Below the pieces are notes generated by a model, which ran no database searches, was not told where the DNA came from, and was given only the letters and a program-made list of their open reading frames with translations. This document shows positions 951 to 50,396 of a DNA stretch of 53,995 nucleotides, piece after piece. Numbering within the stretch: position 1 is the first letter of the stretch; every line of letters starts with the position of its first letter. Position numbers and translations under genes: made by a program. The DNA comes from Ignisphaera sp. (GTDB lineage: Archaea; Thermoproteota; Thermoprotei_A; Sulfolobales; Ignisphaeraceae): assembly GCA_038821645.1 (NCBI GenBank), contig JAWBDT010000014.1, forward strand, positions 1 through 53,995, written 5' to 3'.

Positions 951-1062
951 CTACTAAACCACACAACTAAATTTTCATGATATCACAACAAAAGTATTTT
1001 TCATATCTCTACCAATTAACTCCAATACACCATTTTCATCTAGTACATAGCTGAGTAATGTT

Positions 1063-1075
1063 GAAAAGTTATAAG
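1063..1075 (+). promoter_or_regulatory. BRE/TATA promoter for the C/D sRNA
   Basis: GAAAAG-TTATAAG about 25 nt upstream of the C box at 1100. Confidence 0.6.
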
Positions 1076-1094
1076 TTATGAAAATCTTTAGAAA

Positions 1095-1167
1095 TCTAGA
1101 TGATGATGTGGGCAGCAACAGATTACGGTCTAAAGGATGAAGAGCCCAAAAGCTCACTCTGAAAGAT
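1095..1167 (+). ncRNA. C/D box 2'-O-methylation guide sRNA
   Basis: C box ATGATGA 1100-1106, 12-nt guide, D' CAGA 1119-1122, C' ATGAAGA 1137-1143, 15-nt guide, D CTGA 1159-1162, with an upstream TATA box. Confidence 0.75.
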
Positions 1168-1721
1168 CTCTATGTATAGGATACTGTTGTATTTCTATAG
1201 ATGACTTCACATTTATTACAGATACCATATCAATGATCTTAATTCAGAAGGAACTATCTAAATGCTCTCTTAACCCGAAACTAATCAATAGACTTGAGAC
1301 ACTCAAGAATCTTTCGGTCAATTCTACAGAAAGATTTTCAGCATTAATCAACTATATGAAGAGTAATAAAAATAATGCTAATATTGAATCATATGTAAAT
1401 ACATTCTGCAACCTAGCCAACAATATTGTTGAGTTGAGAAATATTGTAAGAGAGCTACTTGAAGAATCATCAATAAGATTCTGTGACAATATCTCGAATA
1501 AATTAGAAGAACTTAGCAATAAAATTAACACAATAAGTGTAACATTTAGTACTTTAGCCTTAGCTGCTTTAGCTAAAATTAGTAATATGTACATGAACTT
1601 AAGCGGTAAGATAGCTTCATCATTAGCTTCACTAATTTTTTCATTTCTATTAGATATCCATACAGATAATGTTAGAAAAACTCTAACAATGTGCTATTCT
1701 ACAGATATTCAGGTTAAATAG
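1137..1721 (+). CDS. Hypothetical helical protein (true start may be ATG 1233)
   Basis: 194-aa ORF with no recognised motif; the annotated ATG coincides with the sRNA C' box. Confidence 0.55.
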   Translation: MKSPKAHSERSLCIGYCCISIDDFTFITDTISMILIQKELSKCSLNPKLINRLETLKNLSVNSTERFSALINYMKSNKNNANIESYVNTFCNLANNIVELRNIVRELLEESSIRFCDNISNKLEELSNKINTISVTFSTLALAALAKISNMYMNLSGKIASSLASLIFSFLLDIHTDNVRKTLTMCYSTDIQVK

Positions 1722-1803
1722 ATAATAACTTCTTCCTACAATAACTCAGACTTAAGCTCTACAAGCTATAGCTATGACCTAGATAACTGGAAATGTACAC
1801 ATA

Positions 1804-2241
1804 CTACTTTTTACCCTTGGCTACAGACACTGATACTGACTTACTACGTTCTACAGCTGATTTGTATCCTATATAATACCCTATTACAATAGCCATTATT
1901 GCTACAAAAACTACTACACTTGTAACTAGTTGAGGATTTATTGCCAAATCTACGGTCACAACACTTGTTACTGTGCGTGTATGAAATATTACAAGCTCTT
2001 TAGTTATAGTAATAGTTACTGTAGTGACATTTTGAGCTTCATTGATCTGTGTATCCATAGCTGTTGTATTTGTATTAGATACCTGTATCTCGACTTCATA
2101 AGTAGTTGTGTTAGTATTAGTATCAATCTTTACCTCAGTTAACAATAAATCATGTCCATATGCTATGATGCAATACATTAAGTTAACACTAATTATAGTA
2201 AAAATAAATATCAACATTATGCCAAATCTCATCATGTTCAT
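1804..2241 (-). CDS. Thr-rich surface/membrane protein
   Basis: N-terminal hydrophobic signal, Thr-rich linker, C-terminal TM helix and basic tail. Confidence 0.65.
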   Translation of the reverse strand: MNMMRFGIMLIFIFTIISVNLMYCIIAYGHDLLLTEVKIDTNTNTTTYEVEIQVSNTNTTAMDTQINEAQNVTTVTITITKELVIFHTRTVTSVVTVDLAINPQLVTSVVVFVAIMAIVIGYYIGYKSAVERSKSVSVSVAKGKK

Positions 2242-2453
2242 TAATGCTTCACCTCACTCAAAGAATTTAGGAAACAAATAAAAATATTGATGATAAATAC
2301 AGATCGTCTCTACATAAAACGAGCAACATAGTTAAATATTATATACATCATTAAACAAATCTATCAATGTTAATATCAATAATAGAATAGTGTATTAATG
2401 TAGAGTTATGATTTACAAAATTTATAAAAGATTCACAAATTAAGATACTGAAA

Positions 2454-3368
2454 TTGAACGGAATGAGTATAATGCGTCTAAACGTCATTAAACCTTTTGA
2501 TCCCTGGAAATCTGAGCTCTGTACATGTCCATACAAATGGGTACTACATCCATATACTGGATGTAGCCATAACTGTTTGTATTGTTATGCAACAAGCTAT
2601 ATCCCTAGACATAGTAGTGTAAGAGCTAAAGAAAGATTCCTTGATAGATTAGTAAAGGATGTTATGAAGCTTCCCAAGAATTCGTTAATAGAAATGTCTT
2701 CTAGTAGTGATCCTTATCCAGCGATAGAGATTAGTTATCGATTAACTAGAAGTGCTTTAGAGATACTGCTTAGTCATGGATTTAAGGTTCTCATCGTAAC
2801 CAAAAGCTCTATGGTTACACGAGATCTAGACATATTGAAAAAGTATAGAGATAATGTAGTTGTATCAATAACTATTACAACACTAGATAGTTCTGTATCT
2901 AGTAAATTGGAGCCTAATGCTCCTTTACCTAATGAGAGAATAAAAGCTATAGAAATTCTCACAAAAAATGGTTTAAATGTTGTTGCAAGAATAGATCCAA
3001 TAATACCATACATAAATGATGAATATAATGATTTAAGGAAACTAATTAAATTGTTGAGTATCGTTGGAGTTAAGCAGATAACTACATCAACATATAAAGC
3101 GAGAAGTGATAGTTTGACAAGAATTATTAAAGCTTTTCCTAATATTAAAGATAGATTGATTGAAATGTATAACAAAGATTCTTCAGAATACATCCATGGC
3201 TACCGTTATCTGAAATCCAGCATAAGGTTTCACTATATGACCATGATTAGAGAAATTGTAACAGAAGAAGGATTAGTTTTTGGAACATGTAGAGAGGGTT
3301 TCAAAAATCTTAATACACCTGGATTTGAATGTGATGGTTCAACATTTATGTATATATCTCAGAATTAG
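2454..3368 (+). CDS. Radical SAM protein, spore-photoproduct-lyase-like family (COG1533)
   Basis: PYTGCSHNCLYCYA (CxxxCxxC), SSSDPY, LEPNAP. Confidence 0.85.
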   Translation: MNGMSIMRLNVIKPFDPWKSELCTCPYKWVLHPYTGCSHNCLYCYATSYIPRHSSVRAKERFLDRLVKDVMKLPKNSLIEMSSSSDPYPAIEISYRLTRSALEILLSHGFKVLIVTKSSMVTRDLDILKKYRDNVVVSITITTLDSSVSSKLEPNAPLPNERIKAIEILTKNGLNVVARIDPIIPYINDEYNDLRKLIKLLSIVGVKQITTSTYKARSDSLTRIIKAFPNIKDRLIEMYNKDSSEYIHGYRYLKSSIRFHYMTMIREIVTEEGLVFGTCREGFKNLNTPGFECDGSTFMYISQN

Positions 3369-45434: not shown

Positions 45435-46328
45435 TTGGTATTAGGTTCTGTTTCTAGTTTTTTGTATAGGTTGTATGGAGTTGTGTATAGCTTTTTGTAT
45501 AGTTTCTATAGGGGGTTGGGTGTTGATAGATTTGTTGTTGGTTCTGGTCTTTCACCTAGTCTAGAGAGATATGTGTCTATTGTTTTTAAGCTTATTATCT
45601 GTATATTGGTGTCTATGATTTTGATTGTATCAATTTTTCTATACAGTGCTTACGGTTTGAATCCCTATCTCTCTATAGCTATATCATTTGTGTTTAATTT
45701 GTTTGTTGTATTACCTATATCTATTGTATTCTCAATTGTTTTACCTAAGTCTATGTATTCTAATAGAGGATCTATTGTAGAATCTAAGATGCCTATACTG
45801 TTATCGGCTATGGCTTTTCTTTCTTCTGCCGGTCTATCTCTACATGAGATGGTTTCTAAAATAGGTATGTTTCTTGGTGATGACTATAGGTTCTTCTCTG
45901 TAGAACTAGATATAGTTAGATCATATATACGTATAGGTGTACCTCTTGAAGAAGCTTTAAGGTATGTAGCTCATCTAACTCCTTCGCAATCGTTTAGAGA
46001 ACTTCTTCTAGGTCTTTCATCGATTTCTGTTATTGGAGGTGATATAGGGTCTTTTATTAGATCTATGTTTGATAGATATGTATCCAGATACGAGCTTATG
46101 ATTGAGAAGGCTGTAAATAGTCTGAATGTGTATATGGAGGTATATGTAGCTGTATCGCTCCTGATTCCCGTTTTAGCTGGATCTACAGCTGTTTTATTCA
46201 TTCTATCACCTATAGCAGGAATATCTTTTGAAGCTTTCATGGCTCTAGTAACATTTATATTGATACCTATACCATCTGCTGTAATAATAGTTTTAGCTGA
46301 CACTATTGTATCTAGATTGAGGCCTTAG
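45435..46328 (+). CDS. Type IV pilus membrane platform protein (TadC/T2SSF family)
   Basis: TM pair, ESKMP.LL..M..LSSAG, G.PLEEAL...TPS..FRELL, C-terminal TMs. Confidence 0.85.
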   Translation: MVLGSVSSFLYRLYGVVYSFLYSFYRGLGVDRFVVGSGLSPSLERYVSIVFKLIICILVSMILIVSIFLYSAYGLNPYLSIAISFVFNLFVVLPISIVFSIVLPKSMYSNRGSIVESKMPILLSAMAFLSSAGLSLHEMVSKIGMFLGDDYRFFSVELDIVRSYIRIGVPLEEALRYVAHLTPSQSFRELLLGLSSISVIGGDIGSFIRSMFDRYVSRYELMIEKAVNSLNVYMEVYVAVSLLIPVLAGSTAVLFILSPIAGISFEAFMALVTFILIPIPSAVIIVLADTIVSRLRP

Positions 46329-46330
46329 CT

Positions 46331-47236
46331 ATGATAAAGAAGGCTTTAGTTATAGCTCTAGGTACCTCATTTATTCTAATCATCCCTATATATGTGGCTC
46401 CCACAATATCTAGATTACTGGGTTTAGATCTCTTTAACGGAATAGAAGGTATATACATAGATATCTCAAATGATGTTCTCCCCATACCTATCTATAGATC
46501 TAGTGATGTATATCTATTTGTTGGATTTGTTTATGGAGCTATAGCTTTTTGCCTCTATATGCTGTATAGAGATTCTGTGTATATGCGTATGAAACTTAGG
46601 GAACAAATCCAGTCAATGGTTCCGTTAGTAGTTTCGTATGTTAGAACTGGAACACCTATCTTAACAGCTATAGAGAATGCTGCTAATTTTGTTGGAGATC
46701 CAACTAAATCTTATTTAACTAGATTTGTAGAACTTGTTAAACTTGGGTATAGTCCTGAGGAATCAATGCGCAACATATTTAGGGGTATTCCAAGAGATGT
46801 CTTATCGGTGTATCTATCTATAGCTGTGGCTATGTCTAGTGGTGGACGTGTTCACGATGTACTATCAACTGCTGAGAGATATTTGAATCAGATGAGTAGA
46901 TTAGAGGAAATGAGGAAGAACCGTCTAGAGGGATACAAAGCTATACTGATTCTAGCATTAATGGCGTTTACTGTTAGTGCTATAGTTACAACTATACTTG
47001 TGTCTTATGTTGCTAGAATGAGTCCTATACCTATATCTACTACACCACAGAGTCGAGTAGATATAGCTAGAGTTCTATCCTATTACTACACACTTATACT
47101 TGTACTAACCCCTCTTACATCGATAGCTTTAAGCAGAATAGTGTACAACGAAACAGCTATAGCTTTAAAGTACACAGCATTATTCATAACAACTATATCT
47201 ACAGTCTTTGCTCTAGCCTATAAATTGTTTCTCTAG
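46331..47236 (+). CDS. Second type IV pilus membrane platform protein (TadB/T2SSF family)
   Basis: VRTGTPILTAIE, LG.SPEESM, SSGGRVHDVL, C-terminal TMs; 2-nt gap from previous gene. Confidence 0.8.
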   Translation: MIKKALVIALGTSFILIIPIYVAPTISRLLGLDLFNGIEGIYIDISNDVLPIPIYRSSDVYLFVGFVYGAIAFCLYMLYRDSVYMRMKLREQIQSMVPLVVSYVRTGTPILTAIENAANFVGDPTKSYLTRFVELVKLGYSPEESMRNIFRGIPRDVLSVYLSIAVAMSSGGRVHDVLSTAERYLNQMSRLEEMRKNRLEGYKAILILALMAFTVSAIVTTILVSYVARMSPIPISTTPQSRVDIARVLSYYYTLILVLTPLTSIALSRIVYNETAIALKYTALFITTISTVFALAYKLFL

Positions 47237-47338
47237 ACAATTCAAGAGAGAATCCATAACCTCAAAATGTTCACAGAATCATTCAAACCAACATATACTA
47301 AAAATCCCTCTCATCAACCTGTTTAACTTATTAATGCT

Positions 47339-47353
47339 GAAAAGTTTTTAGTA
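47339..47353 (+). promoter_or_regulatory. BRE/TATA-like promoter for a probably leaderless 47375 gene
   Basis: GAAAAG-TTTTTAGTA ending 22 nt before ATG 47375. Confidence 0.5.
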
Positions 47354-47374
47354 GATAGCAAGTGGGTTTCAGCA

Positions 47375-48433
47375 ATGCCTAAGAAAAAAGTGCGAACTTC
47401 AGAAGGCTTTATAGTTGATGAAGAGAGTGGTGAAGTTCTAGATGACACAGCTATAGATTTTGAGCATCCTGAGTATAGAGCCTATAGTTATGAAGAATAC
47501 CGAAGAAAGGCTCACTACGAACCTATTCAAAAGGTTTATGGAGATAGGCTCTGTGTAGATGATGAAGTTGCTGAGAGGATAGTTTCACAGATAATACCGG
47601 GGCTCGTCGAGATAATTAAGGTGTATCTGAGGAAGAGTTTGTGTAGTGCTGATAGAGATGAGGTGTATCGTTTCTTTTCTTCTCTCTGGGGCAACGTTGG
47701 TGCAGAGATTGTTAGAGGAGTTATAGAGAAAAGACTTAGCATGTCTTTACCAGAGTCACAGGCATATGATTTAGCGGGACTAGATGGTTTGACAGTATTT
47801 AGATGTCTGAAGAACGCTGGACTTGATGAAAGTTCTGTTGTTGAAGCGATAAAGAGTTTTATCGAGGGTTTCGAACCTAGAGATAGCTACACATATACCT
47901 TAGTGAGAGACTTATTCACATCAATTAGAAACGGAAAGCAGAGTGCCTTGATAAGGTGGATCTCTAAACCTATCGACAATGTTATAGATATGGATTACGC
48001 TGTACGTGTTTTTAGCGTAGAGCCTAAGAAGCTTAGAAATGTTGTGTATCTTGTGGTTAAGATTCGTGGACTAGGTGTACAGATAACATCAACTAAAATC
48101 GATATATCGTCGAGGTATGGTGAAGAGAGTATTGTGATAGAGACTATAGACCATTTATCGAGGAGGCTAGGTATAGAGCTTTCTAAGCCTATACCCATGA
48201 TAGCTACAGTCATAGTCAAGATGCCGTTCAAAATAAATCTTCAAACATTATCCAGATTCGAGAATGCTTCTCCCCAGGGCAACAGAGTAAAGATTATGGG
48301 GCAAGGATATACAGCACTTGTATATCCATCGACCATTAACATGTATATAAATCTAGCTGGAACACTTGACAGAATTGGTGTGGCTCTAGCTCAAGCACTT
48401 CCAACAGTATGTACATATGCAGAAAAAAAGTAA
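47375..48433 (+). CDS. TFB N-terminal (B-ribbon/B-reader)-like domain fused to a divergent TBP-like domain
   Basis: aa 9-47 EGFIVDEESGEVLDDTAIDFEHPEYRAYSYEE resembles crenarchaeal TFB GEYICxETGEVLEDxIIDxGPEWRAFTPEE. aa ~190-350 show a two-repeat TBP pattern. Confidence 0.7.
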   Translation: MPKKKVRTSEGFIVDEESGEVLDDTAIDFEHPEYRAYSYEEYRRKAHYEPIQKVYGDRLCVDDEVAERIVSQIIPGLVEIIKVYLRKSLCSADRDEVYRFFSSLWGNVGAEIVRGVIEKRLSMSLPESQAYDLAGLDGLTVFRCLKNAGLDESSVVEAIKSFIEGFEPRDSYTYTLVRDLFTSIRNGKQSALIRWISKPIDNVIDMDYAVRVFSVEPKKLRNVVYLVVKIRGLGVQITSTKIDISSRYGEESIVIETIDHLSRRLGIELSKPIPMIATVIVKMPFKINLQTLSRFENASPQGNRVKIMGQGYTALVYPSTINMYINLAGTLDRIGVALAQALPTVCTYAEKK

Positions 48434-48545
48434 TGATATTGTATTAACTTGGGCTTGCCACAAGATATCATTAATTAGATCCAATTAATTAGATCTAGCT
48501 GTCTACTCAACTAGATTAACAATCTGTAGCTTTAGGCATGTTTCA

Positions 48546-48833
48546 CTATTTCGATATTATCCTACTTAGATCCTCTATTACTTTCTCTGCTTCTGCTACA
48601 TCCTTGGCTTCGATAACATGTGAATGATCTGGTAACAGAACAACTGTGTACTTATCGTACTTGACTATATATACAGGTCCTTTGTCGAGATACTCACCAA
48701 GTTCAGCACCTAGTTGAGGATTCTTGAACACTCTAAGAAGTTTGGCAACAGTTGAGTATCTAAGAGCCTTAATCCCCTTGCTAAGGAAAGCAGTTTCGTC
48801 TTTCACAGATATAGACTTCGATACCTTAACCAT
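48546..48833 (-). CDS. Small protein, putative single TBP-like domain
   Basis: GPVYIVKYDKYTVVLLPDHSHVIEAKDVAEAEKVIEDL resembles TBP PGxIYRxxxPKxVxLxFSSGKxVxxGAKSxxDAxxAV; own TATA (48869-48877) and SD. Confidence 0.6.
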   Translation of the reverse strand: MVKVSKSISVKDETAFLSKGIKALRYSTVAKLLRVFKNPQLGAELGEYLDKGPVYIVKYDKYTVVLLPDHSHVIEAKDVAEAEKVIEDLSRIISK

Positions 48834-48971
48834 CTATCTACACCCACAGCCCATACATCCTCTGAGAGTTTATAAATATTGAATCAGTAAAACTAAAGAG
48901 GCTATTTCCTGTAGAGCATGTAGTGCTAGATTGATTGTGACTAATATGATGTAAATGTGTAGTGCATCTAT

Positions 48972-50396
48972 CTATGATGTTACTTCGATACCTTCTCTTG
49001 CTAGTATAGCTCTAGCTACAACTATACCTGTAGCTGCTGCTACATTCATACCTCTCGATAGTCCTACACCATCTCCAGCTACAAACAGGTTTCGAAGGTT
49101 TGTTTCGAGTTCTCTAGATGTTCTAGCTTTCACGCTATAGAACTTTATCTCGGGAGCATATAGTAGTGTTTGTTGAGATGCTACGCCAGGAACTATTGTA
49201 TCCAATCTTCTTAGTGCTTCTACTATATTTACTACTACTCGATATGGATAAGCCATAGCTATATCTCCAGGAGTTACACTCTTTAATGTTGGATCAACTA
49301 CGCTTCTCTCTATTCTTCCCCATGTGCTTCTTCTACCAGCTTCTAGATCCCCGAATCTCTGAATGATTGGTTTACCTCCACCAAGTTTTGTTGCTAATCT
49401 AGATATGCTTTTTCCGTAAGCTATAGTGTCTTCAAATGGATCTGTAAGTCTTAATGTTACAAGAAGAGCAAAATTCGTATTCTTTGTCTTTATGTTTGTA
49501 AAGCTTTCTCCATTCACACCAACAGATCCATCAGGATATCTCTCTTCAACTACAAGTCCATATGGATTTGTACAAAACGTTCTTACCTTATCATCATAAC
49601 TTTTGGTATACATAACTATCTTTGGATCTCTAACAAGTTTCGTTAAGGGTTCCATAACATATGATGGAACCTCTACCCTTACCCCTATGTCTAGGGGACC
49701 TGGCTCTATCTCTATACCCCTTCTTCTAGCTAATTCTGAAAACCATTCAGCTCCTACTCTTCCTGGTGCAAGAACCACATATCTACTTTCTATAACCCCT
49801 TTACATGTCTTAAGCCTGTAGCCCTTAGCCGAAGGCTCTAGATCCTCCACTTGACACATGTCTATCAGGTATACACCTTCTTCTTCTAAGAATCCTGCAA
49901 TGTTTGCTATGACCTTTGGCATATTGTCTGAGCCTATCAATCTCTGAGGCGTTGGTATAAATTTTGCACCAGCTTTTGCTGCTAAACGTTCTAGCTCTGA
50001 TGCTTGTTCACCATCTATCGAGTATATGTTGTTTGGTGCACCAAATTTAACTAGTACGCTATCTACGTAATGGATAATGTTTTCTGCTTCTTCCCAACTA
50101 CCTATAAGCTTATCTAGATCTCCACCAACATCTGGTCTAAGATTCATTGTACCGCTACTAAATGTTATTGCTCCACCTATACCCGTCATAACATGACATG
50201 GACTACAGCTTACACAATCTCTATCTCTTGCAAGTTTCTTTAGGTTTAACATAGGGCATGTTCTAAAAGGATTACCGCTACCCATCTCTATAACTGTTAT
50301 CTTAAGCTTCTTTTTGTTGTGTATAGCTAGTTCATATGCAGCAAACAGACCTGCAACTCCACCTCCAACAATAGCTACATCGAATTCCTTCTCCAT
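48972..50396 (-). CDS. FAD-dependent oxidoreductase (COG2509-like)
   Basis: IVGGGVAG, GIGGA.TFS.G, APGRVG, DIGVRVE, RTFCTNP, YAPEIKFYS, AGDGVG. Confidence 0.88.
   Translation of the reverse strand: MEKEFDVAIVGGGVAGLFAAYELAIHNKKKLKITVIEMGSGNPFRTCPMLNLKKLARDRDCVSCSPCHVMTGIGGAITFSSGTMNLRPDVGGDLDKLIGSWEEAENIIHYVDSVLVKFGAPNNIYSIDGEQASELERLAAKAGAKFIPTPQRLIGSDNMPKVIANIAGFLEEEGVYLIDMCQVEDLEPSAKGYRLKTCKGVIESRYVVLAPGRVGAEWFSELARRRGIEIEPGPLDIGVRVEVPSYVMEPLTKLVRDPKIVMYTKSYDDKVRTFCTNPYGLVVEERYPDGSVGVNGESFTNIKTKNTNFALLVTLRLTDPFEDTIAYGKSISRLATKLGGGKPIIQRFGDLEAGRRSTWGRIERSVVDPTLKSVTPGDIAMAYPYRVVVNIVEALRRLDTIVPGVASQQTLLYAPEIKFYSVKARTSRELETNLRNLFVAGDGVGLSRGMNVAAATGIVVARAILAREGIEVTS

Follow-up and report, generated by a model that had tools for sequence, protein, structure and literature searches.

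The DNA analysed here, called the window below, is a stretch of 53,995 nucleotides (nt) from Ignisphaera sp. (contig JAWBDT010000014.1 of assembly GCA_038821645.1). Its minus strand carries a small gene whose product of 95 amino acids (aa) we describe as an Ignisphaeraceae-specific small basic protein, possibly with a divergent single domain of the TATA-binding protein (TBP) type. An earlier note, made from the letters alone, had given the coordinates of the gene, the C-terminal sequence of its product, a TATA box and a Shine-Dalgarno motif, and all of these were found at the locus. The features of the region are as follows.

48546..48833, minus strand: coding sequence of the 95-aa protein, stop codon included (ATG-started open reading frame (ORF); homologues and substitution rates are given below)
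48841..48845, minus strand: Shine-Dalgarno-like GGGTG, at -12 to -8 from the ATG
48869..48876, minus strand: TATA box TTTATAAA, at -43 to -36 from the ATG, a putative promoter element judging by its sequence
47375..48433, plus strand: gene of a convergent neighbour of 352 aa, residues 192-346 of which are predicted to form a double TBP-like fold

The C-terminal end of the 95-aa protein reads ...AKDVAEAEKVIEDLSRIISK, and the upstream side of the TATA box is a purine/A-rich stretch.

A word-indexed search of 5.8 billion proteins returned 28 candidates, 24 of which are homologues at E ≤ 0.01 with 66-99% identity; those that are named come from Ignisphaera or from Desulfurococcaceae metagenome bins. 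Exhaustive searching of 1.84 billion cluster representatives with HMMER gave six proteins at E ≤ 0.001, five of them being relatives of 97-105 aa with 32-39% identity, and a profile search raised the total to 36 proteins at E ≤ 0.1. There are 26 invariant columns in a 23-sequence alignment of the family. At 17 loci of the genus, the median pairwise ratio of nonsynonymous to synonymous substitution rates (dN/dS), taken over the 89 of 136 pairs with unsaturated dS (0 < dS < 3), is 0.11, with a maximum of 0.38 and a value of 0.07 for the closest pair. The upstream motifs are conserved as well: TTATAA is present at an equal distance from the ATG at 16 of these loci (the remaining one has TTATTA), and GGTG is found no more than 15 nt before the start codon at all 17. 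Since the ORF has homologues, a low dN/dS and conserved upstream motifs, we conclude that it is a real gene and more than a chance ORF.

The distribution of the family is narrow. Among 201 genomes of the order it occurs in 20, always in one copy: in all 17 genomes of the genus Ignisphaera (that of the window included) and in three of the four genomes of a sister genus, and in none of the other 12 families. A scan of 401 genomes of the phylum gave solid matches only in the four sampled genomes of the window's family; two partial matches (E about 0.004) were located within much larger or unrelated frames. No relative was confirmed among 77 pattern matches in viral contigs. Comparison with Pfam, NCBIfam, PHROGs and PADLOC yielded nothing usable for the 95-aa protein or its distant members (the best match was DUF2020, E 0.1), and no Pfam family was matched at E ≤ 10 by more than two of the 22 members of a broad alignment, which is the set of members referred to below. 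The gene belongs to the core set of Ignisphaera, and it is an orphan confined to its lineage.

An AlphaFold2 model of the protein was built from the 23-sequence alignment (predicted local distance difference test (pLDDT) 80.4, predicted template modelling score 0.67). Its elements, in order, are a strand at residues 2-4, a helix at 14-18, a strand at 22-26, helices at 29-36 and 39-48, strands at 54-59, 62-66 and 71-74, and a closing helix at 79-94. The model, which runs beta-alpha-beta-alpha-alpha-beta-beta-beta-alpha, has helices that are lacking in the beta-alpha-beta-beta-beta-alpha pattern read from the sequence in the earlier note. A TBP domain is a two-layer alpha+beta fold in which the elements run strand-helix-strand-strand-strand-strand-helix. 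In both VIA-align searches the top structural matches of the 95-aa protein are single TBP repeats, covered over the whole repeat. The Thermoplasma acidophilum protein TA0095 (PDB 2joi, 96 aa) scored below TBP and well within the noise range, and no sequence similarity to it was detected in profile searches of the PDB. Foldseek with the viral models of BFVD gave no match at E ≤ 0.001 (best E 0.14). For a ten-stranded saddle as in TBP, the single domain would need to form a homodimer. A complex of two copies predicted from the family alignment, as for the homodimer imagined in the earlier note, received scores of 0.17 and 0.00 against a mark of 0.42; this prediction, run without controls, gives no answer either way.

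For sequence comparison, TBPs from 30 Thermoproteota genomes were cut into 60 single repeats and aligned locally with the 22-member family profile by hhalign. The score was 22.3 (P 0.0014, probability 17.7%) with all 60 repeats and 23.3 (probability 22.1%) with the N-repeats alone; these values, like those of VIA-align, are below what either tool treats as proof. The aligned span covers query residues 33-95 and repeat positions 4-81. In it, G52-P-V-Y-I-V-K-Y is placed on P-G-L-I-Y-R-M, with G52 matched to the conserved glycine of F-P-G in TBP repeats, Y-T-V-V-L-L-P-D-H-S on V-L-L-I-F-S-S-G-K, and H-V-I-E-A-K-D on V-V-T-G-A-K-S (EAKD over GAKS), and the final helices are superposed. From G52 on, the strands and helix predicted by the model fall in step with the alignment. 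Control scores were 10.0 for a reversed template, 11.0 for a reversed query and 11.2 on average for 60 column-shuffled queries (standard deviation 2.8, maximum 20.8), none of which reached 22.3. As a calibration, the 352-aa neighbour was compared with the same TBP profile and scored 18.9 (1.4%) over its full length and 18.1 and 13.4 with its single repeats. Since this protein has a clear TBP fold (see below), weak profile scores are to be expected for diverged TBP folds, and the score of the 95-aa family is above that of the neighbour. In the ESM Atlas, the second-nearest cluster (score 0.87, 178 shared features) is one of 98-aa archaeal proteins with 1031 members, 13% of which have a Pfam TBP match; for TBP kinship this is a lead only.

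A number of results weigh against a TBP domain. The earlier note had proposed Foldseek as a check, and the resemblance of the predicted model to TBP in that search is not significant: there were no matches in the PDB at E ≤ 0.001 (best E 0.19), and TBP chains appeared only at ranks 35 and 42 (E 1.8-2.1, probability 0.11-0.13). The model carries two helices that a TBP repeat does not have. The signal in the sequence is confined to residues 52-95, as deletion of any N-terminal stretch of 25 residues leaves a score of 22-23, and a strand-strand-strand-helix unit with an acidic helix could stem from convergence. Pfam TBP (PF00352) has no match at E ≤ 10 in any of the 22 members, nor is there one in the window; with the single sequence of the genome's own TBP, hhalign produced the same alignment at a probability of 0.6%; and the distant member P0045 has no usable neighbour in the ESM Atlas. 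Lastly, the phenylalanines of TBP kink the DNA and are needed for binding of the TATA box. In the hhalign alignment, the own-TBP phenylalanine of L-I-F is opposite L66 and that of Q-F-P-G has no partner, and recognition of TATA boxes in the manner of TBP is therefore not expected, although these residues are not required for membership of the wider TBP-domain superfamily.

If residues 27-51 were an insertion, their deletion might extend the TBP alignment over the N-terminal strands. The score is equal whichever N-terminal window is deleted, and because of this the mapping of the N-terminal half stays a guess.

The single TBP-like domain put forward in the earlier note thus has weak and partial support, from the VIA-align ranking, the score of residues 52-95 above controls and the ESM Atlas cluster, but not from Foldseek or Pfam TBP. 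On balance, a fold of the TBP-like or helix-grip type is fairly probable for the 95-aa protein; true kinship with the TBP domain is possible, though somewhat doubtful.

Were the likeness only that of any two-layer sheet-plus-helix structure, the 95-aa protein would be a lineage-specific small alpha+beta protein unrelated to TBP, which would act, for example, as a protein-protein adaptor or as a small ligand- or metal-binding module centred on H72, which is invariant, and on the conserved residues E44 and E81. The Foldseek result and the lack of a Pfam match agree with this, as does the distribution (20 of the 201 order genomes; four solid and two marginal matches in the 401 phylum genomes), since confinement to one archaeal family fits a young orphan gene; moreover, the residues invariant over the 22 members are K19, G20, G52 and H72. 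However, TBP repeats, and no other fold, lead two structural rankings with the whole repeat covered, the TBP profile score exceeds reversed and shuffled controls as well as that of a neighbour with a TBP fold, and from G52 on, the predicted strands and helix agree in position with the alignment. A protein unrelated to TBP appears to us rather unlikely.

A small regulator of the winged-helix type, or a remnant of a NiaR-like repressor whose H-x-H-V-I-E-A tail mimics the end of a 3H domain, is quite improbable, even though it accounts for several observations. Helix-strand-helix-helix-strand-strand is the order of a winged helix, and the predicted elements from the helix at 14-18 to the strand at 62-66 fit it. 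The best sequence match in the PDB is 1j5y_A, a NiaR-type protein (E 0.045 for a profile of 15 sequences, 0.016 for one of 22). The match consists of two collinear pieces, with query residues 12-69 paired to 9-71 of the chain, and 71-92 to 158-179 ('HLHTIEAPDEETMERIMRELKK'); in the second piece, H-x-H-V-I-E-A and the helix after it coincide with the strand and helix that end the 3H domain. DNA-binding domains of DtxR/IdeR are in the Foldseek list (E 0.8-2.2), and Pfam 3H is found in one of the 22 members (E 0.078, cut-off 25 bits). Taken singly, though, the two pieces are insignificant (i-E-values 6.2 and 110), the match extends partly over the His-tag of the 1j5y construct, and the alignment is in a different register, with the third (recognition) helix of NiaR on a predicted strand of the model. 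The candidate recognition helix, P-Q-L-G-A-E-L-G-E-Y-L, is acidic or neutral, and H70 of the tail is not conserved, being R or D in several members. Neither 1j5y nor any other winged-helix protein is in the best 50 rows of a VIA search of 48,161 chains, and no helix-turn-helix family of Pfam matches the 22 members at E ≤ 10. No protein with a 3H domain passed the cut-off in any of the 26 genomes of the family; when these genomes were scanned, the 95-aa orthologues reached 3H at E 0.23-0.59 only, over 3H positions 71-93.

The protein is basic. The isoelectric point (pI) is 8.5-9.5 in 20 of the 22 members, and residues 1-51 have a net charge of +2 to +8 in every one of them, while the C-terminal half is neutral to acidic. 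K19, K22, R25, K31, R34 and K37 are invariant within the genus.

The reading that we favour comes close to an even chance. It is that of a free-standing small basic Ignisphaera protein with a TBP-like fold that binds nucleic acid or an acidic partner, where we infer the fold class, the kinship with TBP and the binding. The 95-aa protein, which is basic (pI about 9) and specific to Ignisphaera and its nearest relatives, would be constitutively needed and would fold into a compact alpha+beta domain with two layers, TBP-like (helix-grip) in type. Its residues 52-95 would be equivalent to the final three strands of a single TBP repeat and the helix that closes it, and the basic N-terminal half would add two more strands. 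The conserved helical hairpin of residues 27-51 would come about where TBP has its short 'stirrup', the loop gripped by transcription factor B (TFB). The gene would be transcribed singly from its own TATA promoter, and the protein would have no dedicated partnership with the neighbouring TBP-fold protein. A putative working surface consists of the basic N-terminal half (K19, K22, R25, K31, R34 and K37) and the invariant H72. Through it the protein would bind nucleic acid or, less likely, another protein of acidic character, and would serve in general as an accessory or architectural factor; nucleic acid is preferred because of the charge of the N-terminal half and its invariant basic residues.

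A bolder version of this reading is unlikely in our view. According to it, the family comprises the first single-TBP-domain proteins outside Euryarchaea, in which the 'stirrup' is replaced by a conserved basic helical hairpin, and makes up, together with the 352-aa protein, an expanded set of TBP-derived factors that Ignisphaera has in addition to a normal TBP and two TFBs.

The closest known parallel is offered by the monopartite TBP-domain proteins of Thermococcales, such as the 96-aa P. furiosus protein NP_578195, which are described beside halobacterial TbpA (Brindefalk et al. 2013, Nucleic Acids Res 41:2832, PMC3597702). In that work, cases were gathered with the Pfam TBP family as the starting point, the Thermococcales proteins were modelled by Phyre2 as TBP domains at >90% confidence, all single-TBP-domain cases are stated to be euryarchaeal, and the stand-alone domains are argued to show that the TBP fold works alone (PMC3597702). 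Going by this description, the Ignisphaera proteins are like those of Thermococcales in standing alone, in their length (91-97 aa), in their very low similarity to the organism's own TBP, and in having a TBP-like fold that is predicted rather than solved, alongside a normal two-repeat TBP. They differ in that no member of the 22 has a Pfam TBP match, in belonging to another phylum and in the extra helical hairpin of the model. No later literature on such single-TBP-domain proteins was found, nor any on transcription factors of Ignisphaera; Brindefalk et al. 2013 alone was relevant.

Set against one repeat of canonical TBP (PF00352), the protein matches the last three strands and the closing helix with residues 52-95. 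It is unlike TBP in being a single domain and not a tandem pair, in lacking a Pfam match and counterparts of the DNA-kinking phenylalanines, in an N-terminal half without sequence similarity and in the two additional helices of the model. NiaR/TM1602 (1j5y), the best though weak PDB match (E 0.016), shares H-x-H-x-I-E-A and an acidic helix with it, but consists of a winged helix and a 3H domain, is about twice as long and has about 85 ligand-domain residues without a counterpart in the 95-aa protein; it is missing from the best 50 structural rows, and no 3H-domain proteins above the cut-off were found in the genomes of the family.

Single TBP domains bear on the origin of the two-repeat TBP. 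If the TBP-like reading is true, a crenarchaeal (Thermoproteota) family would widen the euryarchaeal-only picture by a more diverged variant in another phylum, and given strong purifying selection and universal presence in the genus, it would be a second independent system for a lone TBP-like domain. If the resemblance is only generic, what is left is a further conserved orphan in a little-studied lineage of hyperthermophiles, of local interest only.

The surroundings of the gene vary. In the window, the upstream gene on the same strand codes for a 474-aa flavin adenine dinucleotide-dependent protein and is separated from the 95-aa gene by 138 nt. Elsewhere in the genus the flanks are a major facilitator superfamily transporter and an aminotransferase, or galactose genes, or a peroxiredoxin and an Lrp regulator, and in a metagenome relative a macro-domain protein and a MoaD-like gene. 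At three loci of the sister genus (L018, about 1-2200; L019 and L020, about 1040-3110) genes of a KaiC-like ATPase and a 156-aa helix-turn-helix protein lie upstream and a NikR-like ribbon-helix-helix gene downstream, all on one strand and with gaps of about 40-55 nt, which is an operon-like arrangement. The idea of an operon as a general feature was dropped, since the context is different in the window's genome and in the metagenome relative; in the former, the KaiC-like, helix-turn-helix and NikR-like genes are on other contigs or were not found. Given its variable flanks, the gene has the behaviour of a unit that stands free and has a promoter of its own.

Contigs from metatranscriptomes also touch the locus. 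One of them follows the window from 48715 to 48882 and then continues with 255 letters unlike it; that the sequence beyond 48882 differs in a strain 95-99% identical is another sign of reshuffled surroundings upstream of the promoter. Contigs of the metatranscriptome library X16, at 95-99% identity, span 47357-48895 and include the whole ORF, contigs of an RNA library not being evidence of transcription; cover is absent at 47300-47356 and 48896-49000, and this absence is uninformative.

The genome has a complete set of basal factors, namely a canonical two-repeat TBP, which is on contig C4, and two TFB genes, likewise canonical, of which one is on C13 and the other on C4:

C13:36407-36949, C4:13244-13795 and C4:94865-95383: basal factor genes, one TBP and two TFBs

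A scan of the same genome with Pfam TBP at E ≤ 1 found only the two repeats of the canonical TBP. As the complete basal set is present, the TBP-fold proteins of the window are additions and not replacements.

The 352-aa neighbour, whose stop codon faces that of the 95-aa gene at a distance of 112 nt, had been read in the earlier note as a TFB-TBP fusion. In its AlphaFold model (pLDDT 77.3), two successive strand-helix-strand-strand-strand-strand-helix repeats occupy residues 192-346, residues 63-189 are helical and residues 1-56 are of low confidence. Foldseek placed TBPs in the top 39 listed rows of the PDB (best E 8.7e-8, probability 1.00), with template modelling scores of 0.65-0.68 on the target over about 180 columns. 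The protein has no Pfam match at E ≤ 1 and no NCBIfam match, and the only genes retrieved from its genome with Pfam TFIIB are the two canonical ones on C13 and C4. The double TBP fold of the supposed fusion is thus upheld, while its TFB half finds no support in the sequence.

The earlier note further suggested that the two proteins are linked, and proposed co-occurrence of their genes as a check. Members of the 352-aa family are present in 17 of the 201 order genomes, among them 14 of the 17 genus genomes (own included), one genome of the sister genus and one of another family; 14 genomes hold both genes. Were the 95-aa protein a dedicated partner, an anti-factor or a 'third half' of the 352-aa protein, one could point to the two genes facing each other 112 nt apart in the window and in G016, to the restriction of both mainly to the same genus (both are present in 14 of 26 family genomes) and to the predicted TBP-like saddle of the neighbour. 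Yet a 352-aa gene within 1.5 kb on either side of the 95-aa gene is seen at only two of 20 loci, those of the window and of its nearest relative G016 (95-aa proteins 92% identical), and so in two of the 14 genomes holding both. In three others (G004, G058 and G068) the genes are on one contig but 61, 231 and 246 kb apart, and each of the other nine has them on separate contigs. Presence is discordant in five genomes, whose completeness is 56-99% (several of them are incomplete, at 56-95%): three of the sister genus (G086, G140 and G182) have the 95-aa gene but lack the 352-aa gene, and in G170 and G014 (one of the sister genus and one of another family) it is the other way round. No similarity is seen between the profiles of the two protein families, with 0.2% for the whole and scores of 13.9 and 11.5 per repeat against 9.1 and 12.0 for reversed controls; nor does the 95-aa profile give a signal above reversed controls with the helical N-terminal part of the 352-aa family. 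Because of their convergent orientation, moreover, the two genes are never co-transcribed. The evidence does not support a functional link between the two genes, and a dedicated partnership is very improbable.

Two minor observations concern the vicinity of the neighbour gene. In the 112-nt convergent spacer, where a scan found no T-rich terminator-like site, the 12-nt word ATTAATTAGATC occurs twice, 14 nt apart, at window positions 48470-48495. Directly upstream of the 352-aa gene, two adjoining genes of membrane proteins of 297 and 301 aa (45435-47236, plus strand) each contain a T2SSF domain (E 4e-14 and 2e-11) and probably encode the platform proteins of an archaeal type IV pilus-like system.
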